A model generated the notes under the pieces. The model did not search any database. It saw only the letters and a list, made by a program, of their open reading frames with translations, and had not been told where the DNA came from. From assembly GCA_015233115.1 (NCBI GenBank), contig JADFYJ010000012.1, positions 15,557-79,556 on the forward strand: 64,000 nucleotides of DNA, read 5' to 3'. Positions 15,088 through 64,000 of this stretch are shown here, one piece after another. Source of the DNA: Candidatus Omnitrophota bacterium. GTDB lineage: Bacteria > Omnitrophota > Gorgyraeia > Zapsychrales > Zapsychraceae. Each line of letters begins with the position of its first letter. The stretch's first letter is position 1. Position numbers and translations under genes: made by a program.

Positions 15088-15097
15088 AAAATCTCCA

Positions 15098-16048: not shown

Positions 16049-16105
16049 ATGAACAAATATTATACAGACTCAACCGCTTTTGGGCAAGTTAAATGAGCCG
16101 TGAGC

Positions 16106-18132: not shown

Positions 18133-18144
18133 ATTGTTCCTTTT

Positions 18145-20204: not shown

Positions 20205-20220
20205 TATTTATTTGATATAA

Positions 20221-21879: not shown

Positions 21880-21951
21880 ATTGTTAAGCCTTGACCAAAT
21901 TAATATCAAATGATATCATTTGTTTACAAAAGATACCAAAGGGAGGATTTT

Positions 21952-22460: not shown

Positions 22461-22466
22461 AAAAAA

Positions 22467-33209: not shown

Positions 33210-33290
33210 GTTCTGTCCCCTATAAAAAGCTTCTAATCTTATATGACCAATATAATGTAGCAGTGTAACAATGTGACAATGCCAAGAACA

Positions 33291-33320
33291 AAAAATGCAA
33301 AGCGGGGCAAGTGCATTTTT
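33291..33320 (-). terminator. Terminator/attenuator-like hairpin between pyrC and mutM
   Basis: aaaaatgca / tgcattttt 9-bp stem, followed on the minus strand by ttgttcttgg. Confidence 0.35.
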
Positions 33321-33490
33321 GCTCGTTCGCATAATTTCCAAATTATATTTTTAAAATTAATTATCATTCCGCTTTTTCTGCTTTAAGTTTTTTCCTGAAT
33401 TCCCTTTTAAACTCCGTGTCACCGATAAACCTTCCCCGGGCATTTATCATGATAAGTTGAAAGGATCACATGATGGGCACTGCTAAACAA

Positions 33491-35739: not shown

Positions 35740-36400
<661 letters not shown>

Positions 36401-36423
36401 AAAAGTTAAACTTCACTTTTAAA

Positions 36424-36452
36424 AATATACCATCTTACAACGGAAAAGTCAA
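36424..36452 (-). promoter_or_regulatory. sigma70-type promoter of the pyr operon
   Basis: Minus strand: TTGACT (36447-36452), 17-nt spacer, TATATT (36424-36429), directly downstream of the giant-gene stop. Confidence 0.5.
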
Positions 36453-36494
36453 AAATTTTTTCTCGTCCGGTGATATGAACTTGATCCTAAAAAC

Positions 36495-39400
36495 CTAAGA
36501 TTTAAAAATCTCGCCTCTGACAAATCTATTTTTAAATCCTAAAATATCCTCCTGGCTGAAATGCTTGTAAAATTTACGAAGCGCATCCAGCACCTTATCC
36601 TGTTTTTCTCGATCACCGATTATTTTCAAAGCTTCCCGATAATAACGCGAAGAAATGTTCATTAAAAATTTTTTGTTGCTCAAAGACTGACCTTCCATGC
36701 TGGCAAACATTTCTACTACCACACATCGATAAATAAGACTCTCGTAAAGATTGCGATAAACATGTATTTTCTTCCATCTGGCTTGCTCAAAAAACTTTGA
36801 ACCCTTCTTCGTCCCTTCTGGAAATAATAAAACTGTCATTGCCTCTGTCATGATTTCATTCAGAATAAACTGCGCGTGTAACCATTCTAATTGATCATAC
36901 TTCAATTGTTCCGTAAAAATTTTCGTAAATTCTCTGTCTAAACTTAAATATTGTTCTTTCAACCAGGCCTGAAGCTGATTCTGCGGATGCTTCAACTGCA
37001 CAGATGAATAACCATTTCTGTTTAAAATAAAATGACATGATTCATGCCTTATCGTGTAAGGAACGGAGTGAATAGCATCTAGGGGGCTAAATCGTTCATT
37101 TGCCAAATTAATCTTCATTTCCGTTCCAGGATCATTAACCGCAAATAAAAAGCTCACCCGCGAACACACTAAATGCATTACGATATCTTCAGGGAAATAT
37201 TTGTTTGCGAGAATATCTTTGAAATACCGATAAAACAGTCTTGGTGTCCAGCCCAGACGGAAAGCAGGCTCAAAAGAATCATCATATGTCAAAAATTTTA
37301 GAAGGTTTTCTGATGATAATCGGGCTCCTTCACTCAAATAAAATCTTTGCGCAGCTAAACCATTCTTCTCATTCGATTGATATTCATAAATATCAATCTG
37401 CTCTTTAGTAAAAACAATGATTTCTTCGGGGTAACCAAGGCTCCCCAGAAAATGTTGAACACACTGCAAAACTTGTTCCCGTTTCAAATTCCAAAGTTCA
37501 TTCGTAAAAATTTCCAAATTTTCATAATTTGTTTTACTGAGTCCTTTAGACAAACTATTTAAAAATTCTTTCGTAGGGAGCTCGGTGAATTTATCGCTCT
37601 TTTTCAAATATTCCACCAAAGCCAAATCGCGCAAGGCTCGCAAAAATCCTTTATATAATTTAATTTTGTCTACGGACAATCCCCTTTTGCCTATCAAAAA
37701 ACACATCAGGCTTTTTTGAGATTTAAATGTCATGCCATGCGTTAGGATGTTTTGTAACGACACTTCGGCAGACAAAGGCTCAAGCAGCCGTTGATCGAAA
37801 AGAGTTGATTCATTGGCTAAATCGAGCGCATTTTGAATCCTGATAAATTCTTCACAATATGCCAGAATTTCACCTGTATCCTCAATCAAAATAATCCCTT
37901 CTTGGGCAAGCCGCGGATGCATGTGTTCTTCAAAATCGAGCACAGTCCGGATCATTTTTTCCGCTTCATCAATACTTTGCAATTGCCACATCTGCTCACT
38001 CAACTCACAGAATAACTGATAATCTTCGTTAAACCTGCGCTCATCTTTCTGTTTTAATGCTTGGACTCTGTGCTCGCGCTCTTGACGAGCTTGTTCTTTC
38101 TGTCGCAACATATTCTCAGTCTTTAACCTTACCAAACGATCCGCCTCAGCCGTTGCTTCTGTCTGTTTCTGAACCCGATCCCGATTTCTTTGTTCATCTG
38201 CTATAGCGGTGCGCCATTTCTTAATCTGTCGGGTAATGTTGCGGATATCTGCCGGACGAAAATCTATTTCTCCCAAACCCGCCTCGATTTGTTCCAATTC
38301 TTCTTTCAGTCCTGCTAAATCATGCGTTTTGATATTTTGAAAAATCTTTTTTAATCCCTCTACTTTTTGCAGGAAATTTAATTTTTGCTCTGCTTTTTTA
38401 TTTTGTATTTGCTTTTCTTTTTTAGCTTCAAATTTTTTGACAAACCGCGCCCAATATTCTTTCCCATCTGAAAACATAAAAATTCCCGCAAGAAATACCA
38501 AAACGAATAAAGCAACGACGACAGTGATATTTTTTGTAACCATTAAAGAACCAAAGATAACCCCCGCAACAACTATCACAAAAAGCAAAGCATTTAATAT
38601 CGAACCGGTTTGACCGGAATGAAAACTTCTTGATCCTGCTAAAATGGCACACCGGGCATTTAATTTTTTTTGTGCTTGATCGATCTCTTCCATCTTTTTA
38701 TTAAAATCAGGAACAATTTCCTGCGGCGGGACCAAAGACAAAATCAATTCTTTAATCATCTGTGATATGCCAGATTGCGGCTTGGAAGAAACAGCCAATT
38801 TTCTCGTTGTTTTAAAATAGGTAACGGCTGATGATGTCGCGAATCCTAACCATAATGAATAAAAAATAATTCGCTGTAAAACTGTCGGGCTTGCCGTTAA
38901 CATTGGCAAAGCAAACAACGCGCCGAACATGGCGAACAGCACCATGCCATACGAATGAAGCATTGTATCTCCGGCCTTATGTATCTCTAATGCTTCCCAC
39001 GTTTGGATCATGGATTCCGCTTGTAAAATTTCTTGGGGACTATTACAAGAATAAAATTTGTCTTTCTCATCAAGATTTGCCACCGTAACTGTCATATTGC
39101 GCCGTCGCATCTCTTTTAGAATCTCCCCCACTGAAAAACTTTTTTGGCTGTCCGCAAAATAAGCCAAGACTTCTAATAATTTTGACTTTGTAAAAAGGAT
39201 GACATTAGTGTTGCATTCTTTAATGGCCTTAACTTCAGACATAGGAATATCCTGCTCGAATATTGTCCCCTTGCCGATTGCGATAGATGTCTCATTAAAT
39301 CTGGAGGGTTCAACTATTTGATAAAAAGAACCATTGGATTGGCGGATTACTCTTCCAAAATTCAATGGTTCTTGGTTGTGAACAGTTAAAACAACAGCCG

Positions 39401-42400
39401 CTTGCTCACGGCATTGAGTTTGGATCATCGTCGTAATAAAAACATCATTCGGATAAATATCATCCAAATTCATGACCAAAACATATTCACAGGGATCAGC
39501 CGCTAGCGCGTCTTGAATAAATAAAAAATTATTTCCCGTATTGATCAGACCCGTTCCATCCGGAGCGGATACGCGATGAAAACACGGAGCATTTTTACCG
39601 TAACGATTTATAATACTTTGTTCTAGAGCCGGAGCACCAAATCCTGTTATAATAGTGACTGGTATTTCAAGTTTAAGCAATTTATCGAGCGTGTACGAGT
39701 AGATAGGACGACCATTAACCTCAATTAAGGGTTTAGGCATGTTTATGGTCGCTCTGGCTCTTTTGCCTCGCCCTGCTCCTAACACATAAGCCCGGACAGA
39801 TAAACCACTCTCTCTTTTCAAAAATTCCTTAATGTAACTCGCGCTCCCCGCAAAACCAATTTTCCCTCTAATATAAAGCTGTTCTCCTAGCTTAACCAAG
39901 GCCTTGGCCTCTTCTAAAGATGTAACATTAACCCACCTGTAATCACTGCTGGGAATTTCGCAATACGCGTGCTTCGACGAGCTCATGGCCTCAATCGAAT
40001 CAAAAAGCTGTCTGGTATTTTTCAGCATAAAGTTAAAGGTTTTGTCCATGACCGGATACGGCACCACAATATAATTGCCCTCGCCTGCCTGCTTAGCGGC
40101 CCATTGCAATACTTTTTCTCCGATTCCCTGCCTGGTATCCTGGACCCTAAAAACATGAACCATTAATCGCATTTCTTTGTGACCGGTGATCAGCCGGGCT
40201 TCCACAAAACCTATAACGGTGCCGTATTTTTCCAAAAAATATAATTCTTTGGCAAAAGGTTTCATAATCAAACCATCTGCCAAATCAACTTTACTTCCGG
40301 ACAATGCTGAACCAAACTGGGGTGGGGCCTGGGTTCTATAAGCAGAAAAACATTCTTGAAGCGTTTCTAGAGGAGAACACTCTGACCATTCCTGCACGAG
40401 TAATTCCATAATATGCGGCATATCCGCTGTTACTATCTTACTGCTCAACCAAATCAGACGTTCAATAATTTCCGCGATAGCCGCTTTTTTAAATTCATCG
40501 GTATCTTGCTGATGAAGGATTTTGAAAATTAGCGAGGCGCATATTTCAAGAAGCAATGGTTCCTCTTCACAAATTTTCGCGATATCCATGGTCATGCCAT
40601 GATGAATACAACACGGCTGCCAGGTAAAATCCACGGCGAGTTTTATGATGCTCTCGATCGCCTCAAACAAACGCTCTGTCAACTGTCCGCGAAATAATTG
40701 GACTACATGCTCAACGATTTGCTTATGGTCATCCAAACCCTTCCATGATTGGATCCGGGAAAACTCATCTAAAGGTTCTGCCCATTCGCGTAAAATTTGT
40801 CCGACCCGTGCTATTTCCTCGTCACACTTTCCCGCGAAATTCATTTGCAGATATTTCAGGTATATTTGATACAGCTCAAACAAGGCTTCCGGATCCTGGC
40901 GCAAACCTTCGCTATTCGCCGCATCATGCGACAGGTGGTTAACTTGTTCAAGTGTGGCATGAAGCAACACAGCCTGAGTGAGCCGTGTTTTTCCTGATCG
41001 GGTCGAATCTTTGATGGCGTTTAGGAAATATTGTTCCCAAAGACAATCTGAGAAGAAAAACTGTAACTGTCCGTCTACAAAACGTTCCCAAATAAAAACC
41101 GGCGGAGCGCGTTCACTTTTTTTGTTAAAAGCATAAACGTTGGGTTGTACATCTTTATCAATTGTAAGCCAATCCTTTTCAACTGGCATGACCTCTACAT
41201 TTTTCAAACTTTGCGCCGAAACGTTCAGTTCCTGTTCCGCGTTTTCAGACACGTTGCCGAATATACCGGCCATGCCAAACCAGCGGCGTTTCGCTTTTTG
41301 GACGGGATTAATAACCTGGTCGTATTCCTGCACAATTTCCTGGACTCCCCTGCATCCTGGCTGGCCATGCCATTTAGTATCAATCACCTGCTCCATCACC
41401 CGGATAAAATTATTTCCGATTTTGTCACGATTACGGGCGGATAAAATTAACTGCACCATTGGCTCTTTGTAAATACCCTGCAAATCACACAAACTAATAA
41501 CCAATTCGCCATCTTCAAAAAAAACCGTCACATAAAAATTCCGCAAAACCTTATTCCAAGAAAATTGTTTATAAAATTTTGGCTCGATATAAAGAGTGCT
41601 CCGATAGTTAGCGTGTTTTTCAGTAATCTGTTCGACTATTGCGTTGAATTGATCCAAAGTAAGAATGTTGTTATCAGGTAATTTTTTAAAAACCAAATTT
41701 TTGTTTACAAGGGGAACACCTAAAAATTCTTCCAACCAGGTTATTGGTTCCAAATGACGCCGATAGGGCACTGCCACCACTTGAGCCTCAAACGCGCCAG
41801 TCTGCAATGCCGGGACAGAAACCAGTAAAACATTTCCCATGGAATCCATTATCCGTATATCTCCCAATTCATTGGCCGCTTTCCTCGATGAAAAACTATC
41901 CTCATTCATAGCCACATGAATCCCCAAAATCAACCGTTCCTTTTGACGGGCCAAGTCGGAATTTTCGTCAGTCAAAAGGCCGCCGGCGGATTGATCCGGA
42001 TTCCATACTGACGTACCCCCGCCTTCAAAAACCAATTTAAAGGTATCCTCAAAAAATTTCGCCGAAGCCGTCATCTCAACTGAAATAAAATCTAAAATTT
42101 CCTTAGCTATCATTTCTTCGGAAATCAAATCTTCCCGATCCTTTAATTCTGTTAAGAACTCAAAAAGTTGCCCCACAAAATCATGCAAACTATTCTGGGT
42201 TATAAGCGGCCGCCCGTATAATATATCCAACTTGTGTTGTTTATCAAAAAATGCATCGAGTTGATGGCGGATTTTTACCAAAAAAATGCTCCGTAAAACA
42301 GGTATACTTTTTGTTTCACTCACCATATCCCAAACCTGTGTTGTTATTTCCAACAATGCCATACAAAGCCGCAAGTCATTTTTAATTTTTTGTTCAATTA

Positions 42401-45400
42401 TCTTCAATTCTTCAATCATTAGCGCGTGTTTGGGAATAGATCCGACCAAATAAGCTCTATGACTCAAATCTTCATAAAATACCAACCTAGCGTTTTCAAT
42501 GATAAACCGGGCGATTTCCAAAACTTTGGGATGGAAACGGTAATATCTGGCCCACAAAACCGGCAAACTTTCACCTGTTGCATTTGCCAAGCCCTTTAAC
42601 CGTTCATTAAATGCGCGGGCCTCGTTAATTTCAGTCCGTTCTTTTTCAGATTTCGCGGCTTCTGGTGATTTACCGGACAATACCTGTAAAGAATGCCACA
42701 AAGCCGGACCGCCAAAGACGGGCCGCGTAAGCCAGTTCATTTTATCTTCTTTTTTGGTTCTAATCCCGACAGATGTGGTTTGTTTAGGCAGCGACGGATC
42801 ATACTGAAATAATGACTGGAGAAATAAGTATTCACTTTTTCCAGCTAAAAAAACCAGCTCGAACTTCTGTCCGGACCGCGGTAAATCTCTTAAATAATCA
42901 AAAATCTCAACAGTAAATCCGCCTTCTAAAACCGGAGTATATGGAGAGGGCATTTCACCCGGCCATAATTTTTTGCGCGCAAAAATATCGCCGGCAATAA
43001 CCGCGCGCTTATACCCTTGGCTAATCAACCAATCAACCGCGGATTTTAAACGGCTGAGATGCCCATGGGGCTGGCTGATAAACACGTCTCGGTCAACCGT
43101 GTGATAAGCTAAATTACTGATCCATCTGCGGTATATATGATCCAACTCTCTCAAACGCGTTAAATCATATTCGGTGGCCCGCACATCAACATTCTTGACT
43201 TCATATTTGACGCGAGCCGGCCTGTTCATAGATTTCTGTAATAGAATTTCAATGGTATTGATATCATTGAATTTTAACTCGTATTTAGTTCTTGCTGTTG
43301 TGTTCAAGGCTTTTCGCAATATAACAGCAATTTTATTTATATCTTTTGGCTTCAACTTATTAATAGCCTCTATAATCTGCTCTTTGCTCTTTTTATTTAA
43401 ATTTAAACGCACCTGTCGAAAAGATATTTTCCCCCAAACAGTATTTTGGGTATCCGGATCTAAAACCGTGCCTTTCAGCGACTTGATTTTTATAAGAGAC
43501 GCTTTCTTAACGACCTCGTAACTCGCCCCCGCGTTTTCTTTTCGAATAACTTTTATAGCTTCAAAAACCTTATCTGTAATTAGCCGAAGCTGGACTTTAC
43601 GATCAATGACATTGCTCTGGTCAGTGCCTTGATCCGCGATAATGAGCACCAGAGCACTTTTTGTGATACGGGCTAAAGCGGCCCGGGTCTCTTCCATAAT
43701 TTTACTGACATGCACGTTGCCGCGAATCACTAAAACAGCTTCAGAACGTTCATCCGGCGTTTCTATACCAACAACTTGCGGTTCGTTATCTTCACCTTTT
43801 AACCATTCTCTCCATCGGCAAGGCTGTCCTTCAATAATATAACGTCCATGGACGTACCCGCTGATCATGTTATCGATTTCTGCTGGCGTTAATTTTGTTC
43901 TGCGGCGGGAAACGGGATAATAATATCCGCTGGCAGTTCTCCGTTCCCCCCTCAGCTTTACAAAATAAGTCGCTAAAGATGAAAAATACATTGTGTATAA
44001 CAATAGACCAAAAACATATCCCAGCGATACAGGCGTAACTGGAAATCCAAATAAAAAGCCTATCATTAACCCGCCCGAAATAAACAAAAGCTTTTTAGCC
44101 ATCGGATAACAAAACGTCATTTGTACCGCAAATGTTTCATCCCGGAAGCCCATAAGATAATGCAAAGTGGCGTGAAAATAGATAATTTTTTGAATAAACG
44201 GCGGAACAAAGCGCATAGCTTTAAAATCAATAAACATTTCACCAAAACCCCGGCTGAACTTGACATACTCAATTTTATGAAGAGATTCCGGATCGCGTTC
44301 ATAAAGATCGCGGATATCGCGCGCCTTGTGTAAATCCTTAAATTCAGGAATAAGTTCGTAATTGTTTCGCTGGAACCAGAAGTTATTCAAACGGAAATCC
44401 ATTGCCGACTCAATGAAACTTGCCGTAGCTAAGGGAAGAATGATCATGGAAGCCAAAACACTTAAGCAAGTGACATCCACCCATAATGCGCAGGGGATCA
44501 AAAAACGGGCAACGCCGTATATTAAAAAACCCACATATCCGGCATACGCACCGTAGCGGATACTCTCGTCTATGGCATTGCCTGTAGACGGCTCTTCTTC
44601 TGGGAACATCTGCGAATTTTTCACCAGCCATTTTGACGCGGTTAAATTTTTATCCGCAAGTGCTTTTGAAAAATATATTTGCTTTTTAAAATCCCATTCA
44701 TCTTGTTCGCCAATATACGTTTTTTTAGGATAATAACCTAACCAGTCATACAAAGCTTTTTGATCTTCACCTTTGGTAATATCAATCAATACAAAATCAT
44801 CTAACTCCTGTTCAAAATACCACTGTAAATATTCGATCCTGGCGATCGGTAATGGCTGACGGTCATCATTCGCGGTGAGCTTATCATCACTCTTTTGTCC
44901 TGGATAACCGGCAGAAAATTGGCCGTCTGTAAAGCTTAAATAAAATTTGCGTTTTTCAAATATAACTTCCAGCCACTGATGGAAATACTGTCGCGAACGG
45001 TCCCAGCCATCTTTCCGGGTTAATGTTATTCGAGGGCCAAAACGATTTTGTAAAATAAGCTCTGAAAGGCCTGAAGCATAGACACAGGTACGTGGATAAG
45101 TAAGGCCGTGTGAACCATCTGCCAAAAGAACTTCGCTTCCGGCGATAAGCTCGTATTGGACCGGTCGGTTTATCTCACGGATAAACGCTATCAGCTGTGA
45201 TGCGGAAGAAATTTCCATCAAATACGCGTTTAATTCCTGCTCTACAGCCAAAAACGAAAATTTGTATTCTTTTGCATGCGTTTCTTCATGAGTTATTATG
45301 GCCTGTCGAACAGCGGTGGGTAAGAAATAAAATGCCGGATGGTAATAAATTTTCCCGTCGATGGTCTGGGCCATTTCAAAGAAAGCAAATCTAGTTTCCA

Positions 45401-48400
45401 CAGGCGGCGCCCAATAACCAAACGTTATGGCTTTCAAAAAATAATATATCGCCAACGCGGAAATAATACACCCATCGTGCCATAAAAGTTGAGCCAAACC
45501 GCGCCAGCCTGTTTCCCTATGGATATCGTGCCACAGCGAAAACCAGGCAAAAACCCGACGAGCCATGATTATGGGTGCCAGATCCAACAACGCCGGATCT
45601 GAAAATTCGCCTTGCTGACCGTTACCACGGTTCACGCTGACCCAAACCGCATCAAATTTTTTGAAAGGCAGCTTCCCGGCAAAAGGATGAATGGGTTCTA
45701 GATAAAAAGGTGAATCTCGCTGAATATCGCAGCCAAAAGATAACTCCAGAGTATATTCCGACAAATATACCGCCATACTGTTACTTATACTTTCTACGTC
45801 CTGTGCGTAGGCCCAATAATCGATTAAAAACAAGGGGCAAACGCTCTCGCTTTGTCCTATCGAAGCGGTATCTAAAGATTTGATAACAATTTTAATGATT
45901 CTTTTTTTATTCTCCCCTCGTGGTTTAAATACGGCAACATGATCAAGATTTTTGACGTAAACTGAATTTTTCGGCAATGCCAACAATTTATGTAGCAAAT
46001 CACCAAAAACAATTGCAGATGCGTCCTTCCATCCAGTCAAACCCTTCCGATGATTAATCGCCGAATCCAAGACCTCATTAATTTCTTTGGTCATAAAAAA
46101 TTCAACAAATCCGGAGTTAACTTGTTCTATATTGATCTTCATTTCCGGCACTAAATCCACATAAAGTTCAACCGCGCATCCAGCCCCCCTGACTAAAGTT
46201 TGCACGACGCTGAATATGTCCTTCGCTACAGCTGATGTCAACAAAGCGTAATCCAGCACAAAAATATTTTTGTCGAAAAATTCCGCTTGATCGGCCACAT
46301 ATTCAGCTAAATTATCAAAACCAAATTTATCTAAATACTGGCGGACCTCGGCCATCATGTTGACCCGGTTAATGCCCATGTCCCCATTACAGCAGATTTC
46401 ATCCCGACTATTTTTCATAGACTCTTCATATTGTCGGATCATTTCGCGGCGTAAATGCTGAAGTAAAACAATCAATGGACTTACTTCGTCCTTTTTGTGC
46501 TCTGGGCAAACCAAAACAGCAAACGCGCTCTCTCGTGCATGAAGGCTCCCTTTTAGATCAAGCAAGCCTAAATCCCGACGTTCTTCATCGGGAATTTGAC
46601 AGTTCTTTTTAGCTTGTTTTTCAATTTCTTCATCAATAGCTTTACGTAATTCCGGGCTCTCTTCATATCCAGCTTCCCGGAAAGCGCCATAAGCCTCATG
46701 GGCTAATACTTCCTGCCTTAAATCTCTCGGCGCTTTATACCAAAGCCCTTCTGCGACCCATATCTGAATTTTTTTATGATCCTCATCTATACTCCTCGTC
46801 GCAAAGATATCTCGTCCAGGAGCAAAATCCTCAGCCGGAAAATCCTCGTTCTGTAGCACGCCCAACCCATATGTTTTTCCCCGCGTCCCTGTAGATAAAG
46901 GCGACACGACCATATAAGATATGTTCCATCCGTTCGCGAAATTTTCTAAATCGGCCGCATTAATACCCCGCTTTCTTAAGCCATCTAAAATAAACTGCCA
47001 ATAAGTTTTTTTAAAATCATTAGAGTGGATTAATGCTTTTTTGAAAATTGTATCCATAATCCGTTCCGCCACAGCCTGAACCTTTCGAGGGAGCTGATAT
47101 CCGCAGGCCGACACGGCGCCTCGCGATCCAAACACTACACAAATATCTGTTAGATAATACCGGCGGGCACCTGGAAAACGCTCTTTAAGGTCTAATGAGA
47201 AAACAACTTCTTTTACGGCCTGGCCCTGCCAGTCAAAAGGCTGGTCATAAATAATCTTGATCCTGGTTTCTTCACCATTATTAGATGAAATTATTTTTTT
47301 GCGGCCCTCTTTCAACATGCGCGCTATTATATCTGGAGTTTCTGGAGCAGTACTTATTCTTATTCCCTCTGCCTCCCTGCCGCGTACTCTAAAAGCAAGA
47401 CGAATATTAGACAACACCTTATCGTGCTCACCATTAATATCTAAAGAGAAATCTGACCGACGAATTGATTTTCGCCAATACCAAAAATAGAAATCTCTTA
47501 ATTCTCCCCTTTTATACCGGTTATTTTTACCAAATAAGGGGAACGCATTAATAATTTCCCATACCTTCCCTTGCTCGGAATCTTTTCTTAAAGAAACGCC
47601 CACATGCATAAACTCAATACCAAAACGGCCAGACTCATCTTCGGTTAAAAAATAACGATAGCAATCATCACCCGACAATGTATTAGTGTGGTAACCTTTT
47701 TCTAAAGTCAAAAGAATTAAACCCAGGATCTGATGGTCAGAAAGATGTTGAGGAAAAATAGAATCACCGCTCGGACGTAAAAGTTTCCCTGCTATAGTAT
47801 GACGAGCCAAGATATGACGCCAGCCCTTTGTTGAAGCCGCGCCTTGTTTAAGAATAAATTGTTGCTGCTTATTATTGTATTCACGCGTTAACGAAAACAC
47901 TTCCTGCTCCATAAAGTCACGCGTAATAAGAACTTCATTGTCCCGGTTCACTGGTTCCGGTCCTTTACTTTCAGCGGAGACTTCTTCTGGCTCAGTATTT
48001 TCCTTATTTTCAGTAGATAAAGGCTGACTCTTTATAAAGGTATTTTTATTAGTGAACCGGTATTTAATTAACGTCCAAATCGCGCTGACACCATCGATCC
48101 AGTTAATGGATTTGCCCTGTTCAATGGTCCGGGGAGTCCATTGAATTTGTTTTTCAATTATTTTGTGCCCTAAACGAAGCACTTTGGCAGTAATTTCTGG
48201 CTCTAATTCAAAGTGCTCGCCTTTTAAAACTAACTGTCGTAGAAGACGAGTCCGATAGAGTTTATATCCAGTCGGTTCATCAGTAATTTGAGAACGGTAT
48301 AAGAAATTTGTCAACCAGGTCAAAAGCCGGCCGCCAAAATAAAATCTCATATACGGGACGTTTTCGGGTTCATGTTCTAGACGGCGGGAACCATAAACCA

Positions 48401-51400: not shown

Positions 51401-54400
51401 ATAAACGGGCGCCGCTCCGGCAGGGAACGATCACACTAATCTTTTTGCGCGCGGCTATTTCTCGGGCCGCTTCTTTTTGAATACCCAATAAAATCTCCGC
51501 GATGATCTCCCGCCATCCGTCAGAGCCGACGAAAATAGTCCCATCCCAAGCCCATATAACTAATTGTGGATTAATGCGGTTAATAATTTCCTTAAATTTT
51601 GCTTCGTCCGTAAAATCTTTTATGATGATGGCGCTTGGATTGACTTCTAATAATTTTTCCGCGTCTTTTGACTGACGGGCCACAGCAATAAATGGTAATC
51701 CCAAATCTTTAGCTAAACGCGCGTCTTGCCTGCCGTCGCCAATGGACAAAACTCGCCGAGGATCAATTTGCTGTTGTTTGATAACCGCTTCAACGATTTT
51801 CTTTTTATCAAAAAGAGCCACACCCAAAGCCAAAGAACTCGGGCTCAGCTCAGCATAAACTTCTTCAAAATATTGCCGAACATTTAACGCGGCCAATTCC
51901 CAGACTTTATGTTCAATCGGCCCGCCGGAAACTAAAACCATTGGCGCAGACATGCTTCGCAAAAATTCCAGAAAATTTTCAACACCTTTGGCCAATGGTT
52001 TTTCAACTTCCCATAATGAAGATTTGGATTTTTTTAATTCCAATGTTCGCTCATTAAAAATTTGATAATATTCCCCGGCCGATTTCAGCGCCCGCGCCCC
52101 TTTTGTTTTTAAATAATCCAAAACCCATTCAATTTGCTCCAGAGGAAGAGATTTAGGATTTTGGCTCAGTTCCCCCGACCACGACCCCATTAAATCCCGC
52201 GCCTTTGTCCTCGCAGTCTTTTCTGTCAATTCAAATTTTAAAGCACTTTCCGAAGAAAAAACAAAAAAACGGTCTGTAAGATCACCCGTGTTTCTGGCAA
52301 TCAGATTATTATTCTGTAATAATTCTATGGTGAGGGGTTCCGCGTCTCGTTCTTTCAATCTTAACAACGCGTGCAGAATAAATTCATGGTGAGCCATGAT
52401 CTGGGAATATTTTAAGGACACATCGTTCGACAAATGCACGGCCTGAATATGGACAGCATTCTCAACGTAATCATACCACATCGACGAAGCATTAATTTCC
52501 GCAGGTTCGATAATGATATTTGTTTTAAGCGGCGGCCCGGTTACATAATGTGACATAAAGCCCATAATTTCTTTTAACCGTTCCTGATAAGCCGGATTCA
52601 TTTGGGCCCATAAAGTCTCATCCCATTTAAAATTATTTTTCCCGCGAATAATGACTTGGCCTAAAGGCACAGGTGTAAAACCGGCCACATCCGCGGGGAT
52701 TGCCATAACTTTATCCGGCGCGTTCACACGTGTCTGGTCTAAAAACTCCTTAATGTATGCCACCGTCAGCCGCTTGGTTTCCTTTAATCGGTTAAGCCCG
52801 TAAATCAATTTACCTTGGGGATCTACGCCATCAATTCTGGCATCGTGAGTCCAGGCCGGATCTTCATAAGGCAAGAAATCACCATGCGCGGTAATATCCT
52901 GAAGCGCGTGTACGCCCCGTCCTAAATAATAAAAAATTTGATAATGAGATGTGCCTTTTTGAGCAGCCGTTTCAAGGGCTTTTTCCAACATTTCTTTCGC
53001 AAAGATTATCCGTGAATCATTTTCCTGATCTCCTGCCCCATTAGGTTTACGGTTCATGTTCATATGCATACGTAGATATTGATATTCAGCGCTGCGATAA
53101 AATGGCACAAAATTCAGATAAGAATCGGTGGTGATGCAAGCGGAAGCCAGAAGTCGAGCTTCCCATTTATCGAATCCTGCTTTTAATGCCCACGCATAAG
53201 TTGAATCTACATAATACCGGTTGAAAAGCGGCACACCATAATGAATTTGGTTGGCTGCCCAATTAATCATAATGCGTCGGTCAAAATGTCCCCAATGATT
53301 GACCGGACAAATATAAAAAATAAATCCAATCGCCCGGCGTAAAAGGCTATAAATAAAACCATTGAGCAAAAGTAAATATTCGTGAATACGGTCAACAGCA
53401 TGGGAAGGCAAGATATCTCTGCTGATAATCCCTGGCGGTTGATTTTTGAATAAACGAAATATTTTAACTTTGTGGTGAAAATCTTCAATCAGTGCGACTA
53501 CGAAAAATTTCCACAATGCCCTTTGGATCGAGTATCCATAAATCATAAATCCCACAAAAAATATCACCGCAAACAGTCCGATAGGAATCGCAATGCACCC
53601 CAATGCGGCCCAGTCCAAGTCATTTCCTGCGAGAGAATCAACATACATTGTTCTGGTCCAGGCTTTTGATGAAACAGCCATGAACGCGGCCATGAAAATA
53701 AATTTAACAACAGAATACCCGTTGCTTCCCCCTGCCGTTTTTATCGCTTCAAATTTTATTTGTCTCAAAAGCCAGCCGGTTGCTTCAGCTCTTTTTAATT
53801 TACAGATTAAAGATACCGGTATTTGGTTTTCAGATTCATAATCATACCTATTAACCGAAAAACTTCCTTTCCCAACTAATAAAGAATGGTCAACAGCTTC
53901 TTTTTCTGCCATATCTCCAATTTTCACGACTTTATCTAATTCTAAACTAGTGTCTTTTAAAAAATGCTTTAAAGCTGTTCCCTTATTTAATCCTTTGGAT
54001 GAAATAGTTATTGATCCTGAAGTTTCTATTGAACTGCTGCGTAAAGCGGTTAGCGGTAGTCCTGACAAATCAAACAACTGATTAATTCTTTGGACCATAT
54101 TCATTTGATTCCCAGGTTTTTTAGGCCAAATATGTATTTTATATTTACTCACGGAATAATCTTCATCATAGGCCAAAATATATGTTCTCAATAATGAGAT
54201 GGCGGCTTGGGTAACATATGCGGGTATGGTTTTTTCATAAAATTTACTAACAGATCCTCTATCTAAACGATAACCATACGCGCCATTGACAGGATAAATA
54301 TAGAAAAATGGTAAAGTATGAAGATTGCAGCGAGCATGATTTAGAATTAGATTTAAAAATTTATTACGCAAAGAATCATCCGTACGTGCTGTAATAATAC

Positions 54401-57400
54401 CTACATAAATTTTTTTATTTGCTAAATCCACTAATTGATCAACGATAAATTCTGGCAATTTACCTCGTTCATCCGTCAAAGTTTCATCCACGTCAACCAC
54501 AACACCTTGATAACCCTGCGCCAAATATTCATTAAAACGATATAAATATCGGTCAATGTTTTCCGGCGAAACCTGGCTTGCTTGTTCATCATTTTTGATT
54601 GAATTCAATGCGTCAAAAATCAATTGCTTATTTATGGACGCTTTTCTGCCATTGTTTGCCTTATTTCGCATCAAATAATAATACTGCTGCACTTGAGCGG
54701 CTTCTTCTTGAGTATTAAAACCAATCACTTCATATGGATCAGAACAAGCAATTCCTATAACCGTCTCACCTAAACGAGTTAACAAAGGAATGATTTTTAA
54801 AAAATTTAATTCTGAGATTTTACCATCCATAACCCCGGAATCATTGATAAGCTTTTGATTATAAGCAAACACTTTTCGCTTATCAAAAATGAACACGCTA
54901 CTATCATGCTCACCAAATAAACGTTTTTGTTCAGGGTGTTCTTTGGTTAGAAAAATACCCTCGACCTCCCCTTGGTCATTTCGGGTTAATCCGGCATACG
55001 GCTCTCGTTCCCAAACCGTAGGCATGGTCATAACCGTATGATCTAATAACTGGTGAACAGCCAAAGCGGTTTTTAAAGTCTTATCTTGAATATTTGTAAT
55101 ATCACCCCACATCAGCAATACGTCTCCATCGAAATCTTTTAAAATGCGTTCACTGCTCATCAACGCAACGGCTGTTCCGGGGAGAGTTTTAACCACTACA
55201 ACTTCCACTTGATACTTTGGATAAGTGGTTAAGAAATCGTTGATCGCGAACTCGTCTTCTTCCCTTACAACTAAGACTGGTTTAGTATCAATATTTTTAG
55301 TTGCTTCTAAAAGATGCGCCAAATTAGGACGTCCGGCTATGGGATACAACACTTTAGGTTTATCCGACTGCAGACGGGAAGCTTTTCCTGATGCTAAAAT
55401 AACCACGCGTACAGGCCGAAGGGGTCGGTATTGCCCAATGTCCTTAATGCCGGCCAAATCGCAAATAATATTTTTAATTTTTCCTTCATAGTCATCAAAT
55501 AAAATTGGATTATTTAATAAATACCTTAATTGATCTTTGGCCTTTGCCACCAAATCATACAGATTTTTATGGGTTAACCGTCCTTTAAAAATTCTATATC
55601 CAAGATCATCCAAACCCTCCAGACTACACAAAATTTCAGCCGTTAAATGCGAATCATGCTTCCCGCCCTTGCTAATCGCCGCTTTTATCGGTTCAATGCC
55701 CATAGAACAAATATATTCGTCATCAATCGGTATATGATGAGCTTGCACGACACCATCTGTCCGGTTTCCGTGATAATCCACCAAGACATAATCAAGGACA
55801 GAATCAACCCCCGTGTCTTTTCCGTCATTGAGATACTGCTGCAATTGACGCATATTTTCACCTACCGTCAATTTCCCCCTTTCACGGACTAAATTAGCTA
55901 CGACTATTTTTAAACATTTTTTTTCCCGTACCGCCTGCGCAATGCCCTGGGTTATTAATGTGGGCGACAAGCTGGAGTCAAAAGTCGTGGGAGCAAACAC
56001 AATCGCGTTAGTCCCTTTTATCGCGTCCAGTGCTACTTGCTCCGCCTGAGGATAAATGGCAAAGCGGTTCTTCATAAAAGCTTTCTTTTCGACGATAGAA
56101 CAGCACGCGTTGAACTCTGCCATTTCATATTGATCAAGAGTTTTTCGTACTAAATATATAGCCGAAATTTCATCTTCCAAATTGCGGTCAACAATCTCCG
56201 CTTCACAATTTAATAATTGTCCCTGCTCAGTAATAGCCACCAGCCATAAAGGTTCCTGGTTATTTAAAACAATACTCCCTTTCAAATTAAAATCCTTAAT
56301 CATTCGATTAATAGCCTGGTGATAATCTCCACCATAAAAATAAAATGCGCCCACAAAAATTATGTTGCGCACACCGTAATCCCTCAAATCATATGTTTTT
56401 CCATTTTGCTGTTCCCATTCATCTAGTCTGGCGTTAAACGCACTTAAATAATTTAAAATAATTCGCCGCATTGACGGGTTAAGTTTGTCGACCAATCTCC
56501 CCAGCTCATTACTTAGATTCCGTTCTGCCGTGACATCCATGATCATTTGACGATAATAATTAACTGAACCTGTCCGCCCCAATCTGTGCTCTAATAGCTG
56601 AGTCATATCCGGGTGCAGATCTTGAAATAAAACCACCCAATTTTTCGCAATGTCTGACGGTCCCAACAAACCAAAATTTTTTCTTATATCCCCAGTACTC
56701 TTGCCATCATCATAAGCATTTAAAAGCATTACCGGGTTTACCCCTTGACCGAGTAACCCTGTGGTCAATTTGTTTGAGCCTGTTCCTCCCGAAAATATAA
56801 CCATAGAATTTTGACTATTTAATTTTTGCGCAAAAATTATTTCATATATCTTTACAAATTCTTCTTCTTTTTTATCCTCATTTGGACCTTTTTGAACGTT
56901 GGCCAGTTTTGCCCTCAAAACCCGTAAAACATCTTCTCTATTTTTTAAAATAGAGTGTTGTTCGATATAAGAAAATAGTTCCTGTCTACCCTGTGAACAA
57001 ACCTCCAACAAACTAGTCTTATTTAAACAAGGCCTAACACTGACTAAATTTAATTTTTGAACGGTTTCCAATATTTGTTGTTCGTACATATCATTTTCGA
57101 TAACGCTTTCCTGAGCACTACCAAAAAGGCCATCTGCTTTTTTTTCCTGCCCATATAAAATACTTGTTAACGGTCTCCGGTCCACGCCAAGACCAGAACC
57201 TTTTCTGGTCTTCGCGGTTAATAGTTTATTTTGTTCCGCGGCCACATATTGCTGCACATCCGCGCTGGAACCTAAAAGCATGGCATCGACAATTTCTAAT
57301 TCATCAAAAAGCTTCACGACATCATACAAACCTAGTTCATCTTTTTCCTCCGGATTGCCGCGCAAAGATATTTGGACAATTTTTCCGTTTTTATTTAAGC

Positions 57401-60400
57401 CAATGATCGACATCGCGAACCGCGCTACATTTTTATCCCAAGTCGCCTCGTGTTGAGCTATGTGAGGACAAGCTTTTTGAATTTCGGATATGCGGTTCTC
57501 ACCGTTAACCCTTAAAAGCGGTCCGGTCAGTGCGTTTTTAATATCATAAATGTCTTCTACTGCGGCACCATTTCTTATCGTCACCTTGCGGAAGCCTAAA
57601 TTATTCGAGTCCAAAACAAAAAACACATACTCACCATTTAATGGCGTGAATTCCTGCTGGCCAATGCCATGCGCAGTTTTTGAGATAATTTGTCCGTCAA
57701 CAATTAACAAAGTATTCGCCAAATAAAAATTCCCTTGATGTCCATTAACCGCAAAAATTAAATCCTTATTAGCCACAAATTCTTCTACGGTTAAACCCGG
57801 AAATTCCTTAAATTGCAACCCGTGATCCACCGCGAATTTTTCCAAAACAGCATACCGCGAAAAATCATACGCGCGTCCTTCCGGATCAAACCAAAGTTTC
57901 AAATCAATTTTAACGGGATCGAAAACTATCACCCTGCCTTGCGCAGCCTGATTATCCTTTTCAAATGAAACATCAGAAATCACAACACCATTGCCGGCTG
58001 GCCGATTCTCAGAAATATTAAATAGTGATAATGCATTAACATTTTGTAATAATTTTTTTCTATATATTTTTTCCTGTTCTTCCAAAAATAATATATGCCC
58101 AGCTCCTTCCTCCACAACCATCCCTGTACTGACATCCATTTTAATGAGCTCATACAATAATGGATAAAGCCGATGGTTAAAAACAGCGGCCAATTTCTCA
58201 AATGAAACTTTAGGATCCCGTACCACTCCACCAAAACAATGATTGTTTACCAGCCATGTTACATCGCGTACGACCCCGGCCCCAAAGCCTATTTCTCTTA
58301 ATATACGACGGGTCATAACCGCTGAATATCGATTATGCTGTCTGCCTTTTTGATCCTTAAATGATTTCTGCCCGTCCGCATCTATTTTCTGCAACGCGGG
58401 ATGTCCTTTTGAAATGTCGTGGAAAAGAACAGCCAGTTGTAAAATAAACTTGCTTTCTCCCAAAATCAGTTTAGGAAAATGATTAAATAGATGAATCGTA
58501 TGCTGTAGCGCGTCACCTTCAAAATGAAATTTATAACCCTGATGCGCGCCGTCCAGTATAGATAAAAAGGGTAGTAAAGATGTCAACAGCCCATTCGTTC
58601 TTAAAATCTGCAGCGTTTGCCCAACATGAGGTGTCTTGAAAATATGTTCAATATTCAACCTAATATTGCCGGCATCTACAATCCCAATGCTGGCTAGTTC
58701 TCTTTGGATTTGTTTTAAATATAAACAGGTCTTATTAACTCCGGCTTCTTGTTTATCCGCAGGCCGTCCCGGTTCTTGAATAATAACGGCCATCCGCGTG
58801 TGATCAAATTCAAAACCATGGACGCTGAACTGAGCCAGAAGCAAAGTTTCATTTTCTTTGACCTCTATATCTTTAATCTCAACCGCCTGAACATTGGATA
58901 CCTGCGCATTCGCTGTGCCTCCCTTAACCAAAATAGCTTCTATGCGGCTTCGCCCATCTTTATTATGCTGATGCATGGCCTCTTGGCCCGTTGCTTCTTT
59001 AATTCCCACTCCGATCGCCGCGGATTTAGGAGTAATGAGCGCCATTTTCGACGGCATAGCCATAGTTTCTCTATAAATTGACGCCAGCAACAACCCGTCC
59101 TGATCCCGGTAAACTTCAGCGGCAATTGCCCCATCCCGTATTATAAATCGGCCGTCCGCGGTTTCCTGTTCCCCCTCGATCATTTCGTGTCTGTCCGCGA
59201 CAACCGCTAGCTCGTCAGTCTGCCGGTAAACCAAATATTCTGAATCTTTGGCAAAAGTCAGATCCATATGGCTAAAGGACGCGATAATATCCCCCGCTTT
59301 GACCAGGAATTCCCGACCATCCGCTTTAATTTTAACTACTGCCTCGCCGCTCTTTAAATAAATGACAGCCTCATATTTCTCATTCGCAAAACCGGTCATT
59401 GATGAACCGCTTCGATACGATCCGGTTTCTATCTGAATCGGATCATTAATACTGGTTCGCGCTTTATTACCTACCTTAATCTTTATCGCCACGTCTTCAT
59501 CTTCAACTTCCACCAACTGCATCATGCCAATTTCTTGTTTCACTTGATCAACAGCGGCTTGGATATCCGTCGGAAGCTTACCGCGATCAACACCCTCGAA
59601 TGATAAAGCCGGAATATAATTAAATCTCGGCTTAGCATAAATTTCTAATTTCTCGGCTTCATCAATTAAAGTTGCCAGATAATCAAGATCATCTAATAAA
59701 TCCCCCTCAGGAATAAATGCCGCGCGGTTGAATGCTTTGACATCCGGATATTTAGTTCTAAACCATTTATCAAAAGTTAAGCCCATTCTTCTTTGCAAAG
59801 GCGGTTGTTGAATGAGAATCACCTTGTCTACCGGTAATCCTAAAAATTCAATCTTGTCGCGGGCTAATTCAACATTTTCCTGGCAATTGCGGGACTCAGT
59901 TACAAGATAAAGTTTTATGTTATTAATTTCAGCTTCACTCAAACCTTCTCCCCTAAGATATGCCCTGAACACTTGCTCCATAATTTCCGCCTCCGCCAAC
60001 CCGGAAAGCTTATCCGTAGATATCTGAAGATATTTTGCCGCCTCTTCCACCAAATTCACTGTCGAATGCCCAATCCCGCCGACAAACATAATGGCATCCG
60101 CCTTACCATCCAAATATAAACGAGCCGTTTCAAAAACCGTTTCAAGATATTCGTTGCCGAAAGCCATAATCCAATCAACCTTGGCGGGCAGCGCGTCTCT
60201 TTGGGCGAGAAAAGAAACTAAAAAGTTTTTAGCTAAGGACGCGATACCAGCTACGGTTATAGTGCGCCTTATTACTTCTTCTTTTTTATCATTTAAAACT
60301 GTAATAACCCCTGGACCATTTTGAATTTTTCTGAAAATAGCATTTTCAACCGCGGATGGCTTTTCAGTAGGAACTTCAGATTCGATAAACTTAATATCTA

Positions 60401-63400
60401 CAAAACCTTCTTGTTGCGTTGCCGGTGGAGCGTTAGCTTGAACAACATTTTTAGTCTGCTCTAATATTGCGTCGATTTTTGTTTGGTAACAAGCTTTACT
60501 ATTTGCACCGGTCAGCATCAAAACAACATGTTTAACACCGATACGAATTAAGTATTCTTTCAAGTTTTGTAAAGCCACATAAGGAGTAACGGCTCCTCCT
60601 TCTGCGGCAATTCCCGCAAACAAAAACTCTTTTGCCGCATCATAAATATGTTTTGACGATACTGTGATCACCCCGTCACTTAAGGCGTTGAGTACTTCAA
60701 ATGCTGTTGGCTCCAAAACTTTTGTATCCAAACTATCCTCTGCTAATCTTCCGGAATAATCAGTATAATAACCAACCAATTTCCCTGCTTTTAATGAACA
60801 ATATGCATGTTTAGTTCTTTCGGTCTGAACAAGAAAAATCTTAGTCCGCGAATTTTCTCGTTTAAAAGCCAGCGTAACACCGCTGGCAAATCCACCAGAA
60901 CCAACCGGCGCGATAACAACTGCTCGATTCAAATCCATATTTTTTAATTTTAATTGTCGTATAATATTTTCATTCAATGCGGCATATCCAGCAATAGTAA
61001 ACTCATTGGCATGTCGTACAAAATACCTGTTCTCTTCCAGTTTAGACTGAGTTAACGCAGCATCATAAGCTTCTTCATAATTCATAAATTTTTGGTCTGT
61101 ATTATCTTTATATTGAACAACTTTTGCGCCTAGCTCTCTCATTTTTAATATTTTAGTTTCCGGAGTATTTGCTCCCACATAAATAATTGCCTCTAATTTC
61201 CTCCCCAACTTTTCTCCTACAACCTTTACAATATAGCTCATGGCAATTCCTTGATTTCCAGTAGTAGCAGTTACAAAACTATCTATTTTGGAATTGCTCC
61301 TGGCAATCTTGATCATCTCATATCCGGACCAAGACTTAAACGACCCTGTAGGTTGTTCACCCAACTCAACAACAACAGTGTTTAAATCTTCACTTTGAAA
61401 AATTTCAGAAATCTTAACTTCAGATAAACCTAATACGTCACCCAATACTACCTTAGCCTCATCTACATCAAAAATACTGTCTAATTCTCCATAATTATCC
61501 TCACCATCTCTGACTAAAAAACTAAAATCTAGGTTTTCAGTATGGATTTTAAACTGTGGTTTTGATAAATAACGCACACTCCTTAACAATTTGTCCAACC
61601 GATCACTTCTTCCTATTAGTTCTCCCAATGAATAATATTCATCTTCCGCACATTCTAAATATTTATCTCTTATTTCATTAAAAAATTCCCGGCCTTTTGA
61701 TCCGCCAAAATAATATTCATATGCCAAATATTTTAAAATATATTTTCGTGGATTATCCTTTAAGGTGAACTGCTTGGAAACCAACCTACCGCTTTGATCA
61801 TGATGTCTGATCCAAAATAAAGAATCGAATTCACTTGCCCTCTCGATTAAATAATCTCTAATTTGTTCCCTTAGGTCAAGGTCAGTTAAATTGGCTTGAT
61901 CAAAATACCTAAAGAAAAAATCAACTTCTTTTATAAACATCGTACCAAACGATATATCGGCAATCGATCGTTCCGGTATCATTCGTTTAATGTTCTCAAA
62001 ATTCATATCCCATTCTTTAATGAATCCATTTAAAGTTTGAGCGAAAAACTCAAGCATGTTGTCAACATCTTCATCCGCGGCATCTCTAAGCAAATTAACA
62101 TTAAAATCAAAATCTCCAAATTTCTCTACCCCTATTTTTTTTAATCCAGCCGCCAAAAAATCCAAACTCCCCCCAACCTCAATCGATATCAATTGAGGAT
62201 ATATTTCCTTTGTTTTTTCAGAGCTAATTCGAACAGCTTTTGAAAAAACGGCACATGGGAATGATTTTCTGTCCGTTAAATTATAACCATGATCGACTAA
62301 AGAAATACTTGCACGCATGAATTCTAATGTTTTTATTTTTAAGCGCCGGACAGCTTCTTCAATCACCTCATCAGCCACAATGCCATAAAACGCACCGTGA
62401 TCCAACTCCTCTATCGTCGCGTCTAAATTATCTTTATTATCTTTGAATTTTTGAATTGTACTCGCGCAATTTATAGAAGCCTGACCTTGAATATCAGATC
62501 TTTTTTTAATTATTTTTCCCATATTTACTAAATAAGCTTCCTTTTCACTTGCCCCTTCAAGATGTGCTTGCTCATGCACATCAATGGCTTGTTGATAAAG
62601 CCTCGACAAATGTTTAAACGCGATATCGTGTGAATTAGGCGTAGCCAGCGGAGCTGTTAACGCTTTATAAAAACCTTTGAATAATCCATATTCCTTGATA
62701 AACGCTTTTAATATTTCTACCGCTTGCCGCAGAAGACTCCTGCCCCCTCTTCGCAAGAAATAAATACCAAACCATACTGTTCCCCAAAAACATACCGCAC
62801 TATTCATCCAAATTTTTATATGTTCATAAACCACTAATACTTCTTTTAATTGTTCTTCTTTTTTGAGTTGTTCCTCTTTTGGCAGATGAGTATTCTTATC
62901 TCTATGCAATTCTTTGGCTAATTTATTTCGCGCGGCCTTCACTTCTGCCCAAGACGCGCCTTTTTGCAAACCTAAAACTTCAAAAGCAGGTGCTTCATGA
63001 CCGTTATTTCTGCTTCTGCGCTGATTTTTTTGCTCTTCGGATTTCTTTTCTTCTTCGTGTTGTCGCTTTTCCTCTCGCTTTCTTCGCTCCTCCTGCTCTT
63101 GTCGTTCTTTTTCTTCGCGTTTTGCTCTTTGCTGCTGTTCACGCTCTCGGTTGGCCTTATCTCTTTCTCTTTCCTGATTTAAAATTTTTTCATTATAAAT
63201 ACTGACTAAAATTTTATTAAATTTCCCAATATCCTCTCCACCTTCTAAATTATAAGCTTCAAAAAATTCATTATTAAATACTTTTTCGCAATCAATATTT
63301 TGCTCATGCAATCTATTTAAAAAATCAAGAATAAATTCAACCCGTGGCTGTACTTCATGCTTTTTAGAAGAATAAAGAGCTATTTCTAAAACTAAGCCCT

Positions 63401-64000: not shown

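Follow-up and report, generated by a model that had tools for sequence, protein, structure and literature searches.

What kind of protein is encoded by a bacterial reading frame of more than 27 kb that is neither interrupted nor repetitive, and on which side of the membrane would its enzymes work? Such a frame occupies the minus strand at one end of a 64-kb stretch of contig JADFYJ010000012.1 (Candidatus Omnitrophota bacterium, assembly GCA_015233115.1), which is referred to here as the window. The frame is stop-free from 36498 to 63998 (9,167 codons, at least 27.5 kb, 43% of the window), terminates with TAG at 36497-36495 and is still open where the window edge cuts its 5' end, as an initial annotation made from the DNA letters had stated. 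Residues are numbered from the first codon at 63998; the initial annotation counted from a TTG at 63989, an offset of 3. Because at most 17.5 kb of the contig lies outside the window, the protein, of at least 9,167 amino acids (aa), could reach no more than about 15,000 aa on this contig unless it runs off the contig end. Our analysis suggests that this is very probably a genuine single Omnitrophota giant gene of a known multi-enzyme class. For its function we favour, with moderate confidence, a membrane-tethered mosaic that joins nucleotide-sugar activation with polyprenyl-phosphate glycosyl transfer.

At the base composition of the window, a stop would be expected about once per 14 codons, and the probability that 9,167 codons contain no stop is about 1e-285. 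A codon-usage log-odds score was trained on 16 neighbouring genes and applied in consecutive 300-codon blocks. Frame 0 scores positive in all 30 blocks, and the other two frames score negative, with 13-44 stops per 300 codons. No rival open reading frame (ORF) of 120 aa or more is found in any other frame between 36.6 and 64 kb. Tandem Repeats Finder detected no tandem repeats in the gene and the longest DNA repeat is 37 nucleotides, and repeat-driven misassembly is therefore unlikely. More generally, the frame might be an artefact of assembly or annotation, either a chimeric join of genes or a consensus error that deleted stops. The source is a short-read metagenome-assembled genome (MAG); the 9,167-aa translation is absent from the protein collections searched, its neighbours being present in NCBI nr; and the GC content at third codon positions (GC3) drifts along the gene, with low values at the N-terminal end. 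No error, however, could remove the several hundred stops expected, the coding signal is uniform in a single frame, and there are no repeats to cause a misjoin. An internal three-domain module is collinear with its homologues and free of frameshifts, and genes of this kind have been validated by complete long-read genomes in Omnitrophota. We regard an artefact as extremely improbable.

The domain content was determined by profile searches against Pfam, NCBIfam and the PDB, with scores compared with the gathering cut-offs given for each domain (Table 1). About 11 distinct families are recognised, none in more than two copies and none dominant; together they cover about 28% of the residues, and internal similarity is negligible. 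Many distinct catalytic domains interleaved with transmembrane (TM) clusters had been proposed, and both the profile searches and the hydrophobicity analysis bear this out. The pyridoxal phosphate (PLP) enzyme of the PALP family, the CofD-family domain, two nucleotidyltransferases, a HAD phosphatase, a second HAD half and two family 2 glycosyltransferases (GT2), all named in the initial annotation, are significant. Its J-like, HD, cupin (E 0.015) and GNAT assignments give weak or sub-threshold matches. Three domains were added to its list: YdcF/DUF218, NAGPA and a PI3/PI4-kinase-like domain. The catalytic motifs are intact in the PALP, HAD (Hydrolase_3), GT2 and CofD-like domains. The PF00535 score is 107.5 bits for both GT2 domains and 40.6 bits for GT2 1 alone; the domains share the GT-A GT2 fold and the DxD motif with glycosyltransferases of the DPM1/AglJ/GtrB type (PDB 5mlz), and GT2 1, like membrane-anchored Dol-P-Man synthases, has a hydrophobic segment behind it. 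Scans of the visible 9,167 aa against Pfam and NCBIfam gave none of the SecA_DEAD, C39, S8, dockerin, lectin and glycoside-hydrolase families sought, and no methyltransferase, NUDIX, peptidase or carrier-protein domain.

Several familiar types of protein were considered and rejected. A repetitive adhesin or RTX-type giant, which the initial annotation had also dismissed, is contradicted by the lack of DNA tandem repeats and of Pfam repeat families and by protein self-similarity confined to a small N-terminal repeat (residues 76-147 versus 216-303) and the GT2 pair, whose members are 24.5% identical. A nonribosomal peptide or polyketide megasynthase would carry carrier, condensation, adenylation or ketosynthase domains, and none was detected in Pfam or NCBIfam. 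PADLOC returned no match to a known defence protein. The J-like segment, embedded in an E/K/R/Q-rich stretch (residues 242-369), scores below its cut-off and has HRD in place of HPD, so that it is not a canonical J-protein co-chaperone domain.

Giant proteins of this phylum have been described before, and the kinship with them that the initial annotation assumed holds; the novelty that it implied for the architecture is lower, since the class is covered by two bioRxiv preprints. The catalogue of Nielsen & Lui 2026 (10.64898/2026.06.07.730766) comprises 916 Omnitrophota proteins with a length of 10,000 aa or more, and one class defined there, the 'multi-enzyme metabolic cluster', has chains tiled by many distinct Pfams. 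HAD, GNAT, HD and sugar-metabolism domains occur in their co-occurrence modules. TM-only proteins make up 46% of the catalogue and were read as anchored in the inner membrane, with their domains in the cytoplasm; at 30% identity, 80% of the proteins are singletons. The giant described here very probably belongs to this class of multi-enzyme, membrane-anchored proteins: it lies in an Omnitrophota genome (nine window proteins match entries of 'Candidatus Omnitrophica/Omnitrophota bacterium' exactly), is tiled without a dominant Pfam, shares the HAD, GNAT, HD and sugar-metabolism content, has about one TM helix per several hundred residues and a large unassigned share, and is unique in sequence. 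It differs in that its visible 9,167 aa fall just under the 10,000-aa threshold, the frame being open at the window edge, and in its set of PALP, YdcF, NAGPA, GlmR-like, two GlmU-N, two DPM1-like GT2 and PI3/PI4-kinase-like domains, unlike the starch-synthase/GT1/PGM/ROK set highlighted for the class. Its flanks are housekeeping operons rather than secretion/pilus or GH2 genes.

Giant Omnitrophota genes with numerous TM regions were the subject of West-Roberts et al. 2023 (10.1101/2023.11.21.568195); most of them carry SecA-like domains, and one type, the 'Archaeovorin', is rich in glycosyltransferases and other enzymes. The phylum, the many TM segments, and glycosyltransferases and enzymes set amid largely unannotated sequence are shared with that type. 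Archaeovorin-type giants exceed 30,000 aa, and the present one is much shorter; its visible part lacks SecA_DEAD, HEAT/TPR, GT5/GT1, methyltransferase, NUDIX, SLT and C39/S8 domains. From the Archaeovorin set of glycosyltransferase, methyltransferase, glycoside hydrolase, peptidase and NUDIX, it has two GT2 domains and the NAGPA glycosidase alone, and no genes for a type II secretion system (T2SS) or carbohydrate import are present in its 36-kb downstream flank. The giant is a further example of a protein type already catalogued and no new kind of system, and the sequence is already public.

The most informative part is the three-domain module at residues 2300-3420, in which a CofD-family domain of the GlmR/YvcK (UPF0052) type is followed by a GlmU-N-type nucleotidyltransferase and a HAD-IIB phosphatase. 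A search with residues 2300-3450 gave 71 homologues. The top 15 of these are 990-1,198 aa long, have the three domains in the same order and match about 90% of the query at 28-46% identity; the values for proteins of 1,009-1,198 aa from DPANN archaea, WOR-1 and Omnitrophota are 32-47%, the highest one coming from a trimmed alignment. The sources are a Woesearchaeota MAG (COV11_01130, 1,029 aa), Pacearchaeota, WOR-1, Omnitrophota and unassigned metagenome contigs, the nearest relatives outside Omnitrophota being DPANN archaea. Scans of metagenomes and of GTDB with the module alignment located it, at an identity of no more than 46%, as a stand-alone gene of 1,009-1,127 aa in 12 loci. The alignment with the stand-alone proteins runs end to end, and the difference is that the giant holds the module as an internal segment. 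The sole other fused copy found belongs to a 2,913-aa ORF of Omnitrophota MBPbin6 with unassigned flanks, and the giant's module groups with this copy in a simple neighbour-joining tree. None of the 58 columns that are invariant in the family alignment is altered in the giant's module. As judged from alignment and predicted fold, residues 2300-3420 are an imported, intact three-domain enzyme that is free-standing in other lineages. In the uncultured bacterium binchicken_co113_64, the stand-alone three-domain gene has immediately behind it an ORF exceeding 3,266 aa, which has no Pfam match and runs off the locus (positions 13230-23027 of the fetched sequence).

AlphaFold2, run with the family alignment on 1,151 residues, gave a model with a predicted local distance difference test score (pLDDT) of 88 and a predicted template-modelling score (pTM) of 0.86. 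Confidence drops exactly where the stand-alone proteins end, which is the start of a hydrophobic segment. The CofD-like domain carries the GGTGS (in FSGGTGS) and DDGKSTG (in YDDGKSTG) motifs and the CofD-family fold; in Foldseek it matches YvcK-type UPF0052 structures (2hzb, 2o2z, 2ppv, 2q7x) with target-normalised TM-scores of 0.75-0.86, highest for the 2hzb/2o2z pair, although it is only 16-18% identical to them, about 100 residues longer and fused to the nucleotidyltransferase and HAD domains. Its best NCBIfam models are the GAK-system CofD-like family (84 bits, cut-off 340) and YvcK. No F420 genes are present in the 64-kb window, and the top fold matches of the domain are of the YvcK type. 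The second domain superimposes on the pyrophosphorylase domain of GlmU (rmsd 2.6-3 Å over about 260 columns) and differs from GlmU in having no acetyltransferase β-helix. The third has a HAD/PMM-like fold. GlmR/YvcK binds UDP-sugars and catalyses UDP-GlcNAc synthesis (PMC5482804, PMC10128056).

The pairing of these domains extends well beyond Omnitrophota. Among 160 loci fetched by means of the CofD-like motif, 113 have a nucleotidyltransferase region paired with the CofD-like one, 17 are accompanied by GT2 genes similar to the giant's GT2 2, and fusions of GT2 with the CofD-like domain (640-955 aa) are common. Part of the giant's domain set therefore repeats a functional association that recurs across numerous genomes. 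The pair of CofD/GlmR-like domain and GlmU-N-like nucleotidyltransferase is widespread (for example in Prochlorococcus, Sphingomonas, Acidobacteriota, Chitinophagales, SAR86 and Patescibacteria); in many cases two DPM1-like GT2 genes come next, or a GT2 domain is fused to it.

TM candidates were taken from two hydrophobicity scales, which agree on 12-13 helices in 6-7 clusters; the initial annotation had counted at least three clusters, and the charged, coiled-coil-like stretches that it noted are also present. Eight of the 12-13 helices form four tight hairpins with loops of 1-4 residues. The remaining candidates are isolated hydrophobic segments near residues 396 (weak), 3430 (marginal), 3468, 4460 and 6177. 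Lysine and arginine are more numerous in the long flanks than in the short hairpin loops, a bias that fits anchors with both flanks in the cytoplasm. Overall, hydrophobicity scans give no self-consistent topology, and the same difficulty is reported in the published work on Omnitrophota giants.

In the mechanism that we favour, the giant would be a membrane-tethered scaffold with its nucleotide-dependent domains on the cytoplasmic face. The hairpins would serve as anchors, with the chain returning to the same side each time. Nucleotide sugars or sugar phosphates would be made and edited, probably at a UDP-N-acetylhexosamine node, by the two uridylyltransferase domains together with the GlmR-like domain and the HAD phosphatases, and the two DPM1/AglJ-like GT2 domains would load sugars onto polyprenyl phosphate beside the membrane. 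NAGPA, PALP, HD, YdcF, the kinase-like domain and the dark regions would add activities not yet placeable. A gene for a membrane glycosyltransferase of the PMT_2/GT-C type (20221-21879), the sole plus-strand gene in the 36 kb outside the giant, lies about 15 kb away. Enzymes of this type consume polyprenyl-phosphate sugars of the kind made by DPM1-like GT2, and this one would be a candidate user of the lipid-linked sugars outside the membrane.

A number of observations weigh against this mechanism. About 72% of the giant has no detectable family, and every equivalog-level NCBIfam score is far under its cut-off (the AglJ model gives 67.5 bits on GT2, cut-off 325), so that substrates are not assignable. 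If all of the isolated hydrophobic segments (three to five) span the membrane, at least one nucleotide-dependent domain lies outside. The N-terminus is beyond the window edge and may hold a signal peptide or a SecA-like or C39 domain. The 36 kb downstream contain no T2SS/pilus, secretion, carbohydrate-import or glycoside-hydrolase genes. Homologous megagenes in related MAGs were also looked for, as the initial annotation had advised; no orthologous giant was recovered in the homologue, metagenome and GTDB scans, those made with the module giving stand-alone proteins and the one 2,913-aa fusion.

A departure from a cytoplasmic scaffold would be a surface-exposed effector of predation or episymbiosis, Archaeovorin-like, with the bulk of the protein outside the cell, where its enzymes would attack the envelope glycans of host or prey. 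NAGPA-type enzymes are usually extracytoplasmic, GT2 2 resembles archaeal AglJ and Dol-P hexose transferases, and the three-domain module has its nearest relatives outside the phylum in DPANN archaea. Both West-Roberts et al. 2023 and Nielsen & Lui 2026 favour an effector role for many Omnitrophota giants, including multi-enzyme ones with a signal peptide. We nevertheless consider export unlikely here, as the nucleotidyltransferase, GT2, kinase-like and PLP domains need NTPs, NDP-sugars and cofactors that are unavailable extracellularly, and eight of the 12-13 helices sit in tight hairpins that leave the chain on the same side. Secretion, pilus and glycoside-hydrolase genes were not found in the downstream 36 kb, and the 9,167 aa in view gave no domain of the SecA_DEAD, C39, dockerin, lectin or glycoside-hydrolase kind. 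Processing is a separate matter, and a polyprotein, translated whole and later split into individual enzymes, perhaps by HExxH modules at residues 475, 6237 and 8985, would be compatible with the scaffold mechanism. The exact free-standing-protein boundaries of the module at residues 2300-3420 would suit such a product, the C-terminal HExxH motif lies in a domain shared with a protein of 3,331 aa, which retains the motif, and self-cleavage has been raised by West-Roberts et al. 2023 for giants with C39 or S8 domains. None of the HExxH segments matches a peptidase family in Pfam, NCBIfam or the PDB, however, recognisable cleavage sites were not found in the giant, and a bare HExxH is frequent by chance in 9,167 residues; cleavage of this sort seems improbable to us.

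The initial annotation had gone further in the other direction and proposed that one linear pathway, for a single glycoconjugate or compatible solute, is fused into the chain. The part of this proposal that stands is the presence of nucleotidyltransferase, HAD and GT2 domains, now confirmed by profiles, together with the recurrence of CofD-like, nucleotidyltransferase and GT2 domains in company in other genomes. The part that does not is the single pathway: the dehydratase-like PALP enzyme and the HD, YdcF, kinase-like, J-like and NAGPA domains cannot be lined up as steps of any single known sugar pathway, the divergence within the domain pairs is too great for recent duplicates (as the identity of the GT2 pair illustrates), elsewhere just one block of the giant is met as a unit, and only about 28% of the chain is recognisable at all. 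A complete pathway in one chain is doubtful on these grounds. Returning to the membrane-tethered mosaic, a bolder extension would treat it as a 'Rosetta stone' in which GlmR/YvcK-like, GlmU-type, HAD, NAGPA and DPM1-like GT2 activities are hard-wired on one chain. The family of CofD-like domain plus nucleotidyltransferase (with GT2 or HAD) would then serve sugar-1-phosphate or nucleotide-sugar transfer for polyprenyl-phosphate-linked, possibly phosphodiester-linked, glycans, and Omnitrophota giants would be substrate-channelling assembly lines on the cytoplasmic face and not extracellular weapons. We offer this extension as speculation that is unlikely to hold.

Among the multi-enzyme giants of Omnitrophota, the present one is comparatively small and non-repetitive and is rich in recognisable, apparently intact enzymes, one module having a confident structure model and free-standing homologues. 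It thus lends itself to expression in pieces and to asking on which side of the membrane the catalytic domains lie. What is added here is the dissection of one intact module and a comparative link between GlmR/YvcK-like proteins and the enzymes of nucleotide-sugar metabolism and polyprenyl-phosphate glycosylation.

Table 1. Features of the giant gene and of the adjoining pyr leader (positions in the window; residues of the giant)
Feature	Position	Strand	Residues	Remarks
Giant ORF	36495..63998	-		9,167 codons + TAG stop
J-like segment	62823..62984	-	339-392	25.7 bits, cut-off 27.8; HRD instead of HPD
PALP, threonine/serine-dehydratase-like PLP enzyme	60507..61358	-	881-1164	E 1e-38; SFK lysine and GSGG loop
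YdcF/DUF218-like	59688..60230	-	1257-1437	PDB 3ca8, E 1.8e-8
HD phosphohydrolase-like	58224..58463	-	1846-1925	weak, 19.9 bits, cut-off 22
NAGPA phosphodiester glycosidase	57273..57758	-	2081-2242	E 8e-7, passes cut-off
Three-domain module	53739..57101	-	2300-3420	end-to-end homologous to stand-alone proteins of ~1,000-1,200 aa
CofD-family domain, GlmR/YvcK (UPF0052) type	55680..56801	-	2400-2773	PF01933 99.7 bits, E 2e-28
GlmU-N-type sugar-1-phosphate nucleotidyltransferase 1	54660..55412	-	2863-3113	Pfam E 2e-8, GlmU model E 2e-27
HAD-IIB phosphatase (Hydrolase_3)	53910..54503	-	3166-3363	E 5e-14; DVDET motif
Strong hydrophobic TM segment	53523..53612	-	3463-3492	preceded by marginal segment 3430-3447
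Second HAD, C-terminal half alone	51606..52004	-	3999-4131	E 9e-11; motif I not found
GT2 1	50739..51443	-	~4186-4420	Pfam core 4289-4395; DTD motif
Hydrophobic 28-aa segment directly behind GT2 1	50547..50630	-	4457-4484	
PI3/PI4-kinase-like	49182..49499	-	4834-4939	26.5 bits, cut-off 27.1; DRxxxN (GERDRVPKN) and DFG (HIDFG)
GT2 2, DPM1/AglJ-like	48048..48755	-	5082-5317	DSD motif; 5mlz E 7e-8
HEETH	45276..45290	-	6237-6241	3' of hydrophobic segment 6177-6195; no family match
Two tight TM hairpins	43959..44552	-	6483-6529 and 6637-6680	
GNAT-like	40074..40244	-	7919-7975	weak, E 0.04
GlmU-N-type nucleotidyltransferase 2	38958..39791	-	8070-8347	TIGR01173 E 6e-18
Two tight TM hairpins	38469..38966	-	8345-8395 and 8467-8510	
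Charged, coiled-coil-like stretch	37920..38462	-	8513-8693	
C-terminal HExxH (HESCH) domain	36564..37337	-	8888-9145	
pyr leader (outside the giant gene)	36302..36452	-		promoter-like site, PyrR-box-like sequence, terminator hairpin

The dark regions have few relatives or none. A search with residues 5350-6500 across 5.8 billion clusters yielded nothing at E <= 1e-5, and residues 1-700 have no relative in the GTDB species representatives. For residues 8340-9167, a search of 1.84 billion representative proteins gave just two homologues; the better one, the metagenomic 3,331-aa protein mentioned above, shares the HExxH domain of about 260 aa, likewise located behind a TM cluster. This mostly dark protein, in which HExxH motifs occur several times alongside TM clusters and a RamC_N domain, is the only clear homologue of the C-terminal HExxH domain. 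A single-sequence AlphaFold2 model of residues 8690-9167 is unusable (pLDDT 33). The two HExxH motifs of the initial annotation (6234 and 8982 in its numbering) are present, and the one at residue 475 is additional. GC3 is 0.27-0.30 at 60400-63998 (residues 1-1200), as compared with 0.33-0.47 in the remaining ORF and 0.46 in the neighbouring genes, and one further low block (0.27) lies at residues 3001-3300; the shift may reflect a mosaic origin of the modules.

The remaining 36 kb of the window, downstream of the giant, consist of ordinary chromosomal genes. The window is part of a public contig of 81,496 bp, and its proteins are exact matches to NCBI entries MBF0479284-MBF0479318 (locus tags beginning HQL26_); PurH, for example, is 100% identical to MBF0479286.1. 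The neighbours include pyrR-pyrB-pyrC-fpg-pyrK-pyrD-pyrF, tRNA-Asp, tRNA-Val, pncB and pncA (NAD salvage), a B12-radical-SAM enzyme, an aminotransferase, an M48 peptidase, era, nth, purH, folC, mnmE, two PilZ genes and a TonB-receptor plug. Between the stop codon of the giant and pyrR lies what is, from its sequence, a textbook-looking PyrR attenuator (region 36276-36494, minus strand). Its elements are a promoter-like site at 36452-36424, a GGTCCTGAGAGGCCGG box and, at 36338-36302, a 16-bp terminator hairpin with a T-run behind it. With a promoter and attenuator of its own, the pyr operon would mark the 3' boundary of the giant at this point, so that the giant would be a separate transcription unit. 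The Rfam scan of the window returned only the two tRNAs, with no PyrR element at the gathering threshold. The start of pyrR is likely ATG 36276 rather than TTG 36297. Within the operon, fpg (formamidopyrimidine-DNA glycosylase; 32379-33341, minus strand) lies between pyrC and pyrK. The 976-aa ORF MBF0479306.1 (22467-25397, minus strand) matches no Pfam or NCBIfam family. A close relative, GCA_015233195.1 (JADFYE010000008.1), is collinear with the window between 1.3 and 11.6 kb (PurH 83%, Era 85% and MnmE 78% identical); it has extra unannotated ORFs (1,467, 1,406 and 325 aa), mgtE and an Nramp gene between the genes common to both. Evidently, even closely related genomes differ by the gain or loss of large dark ORFs.

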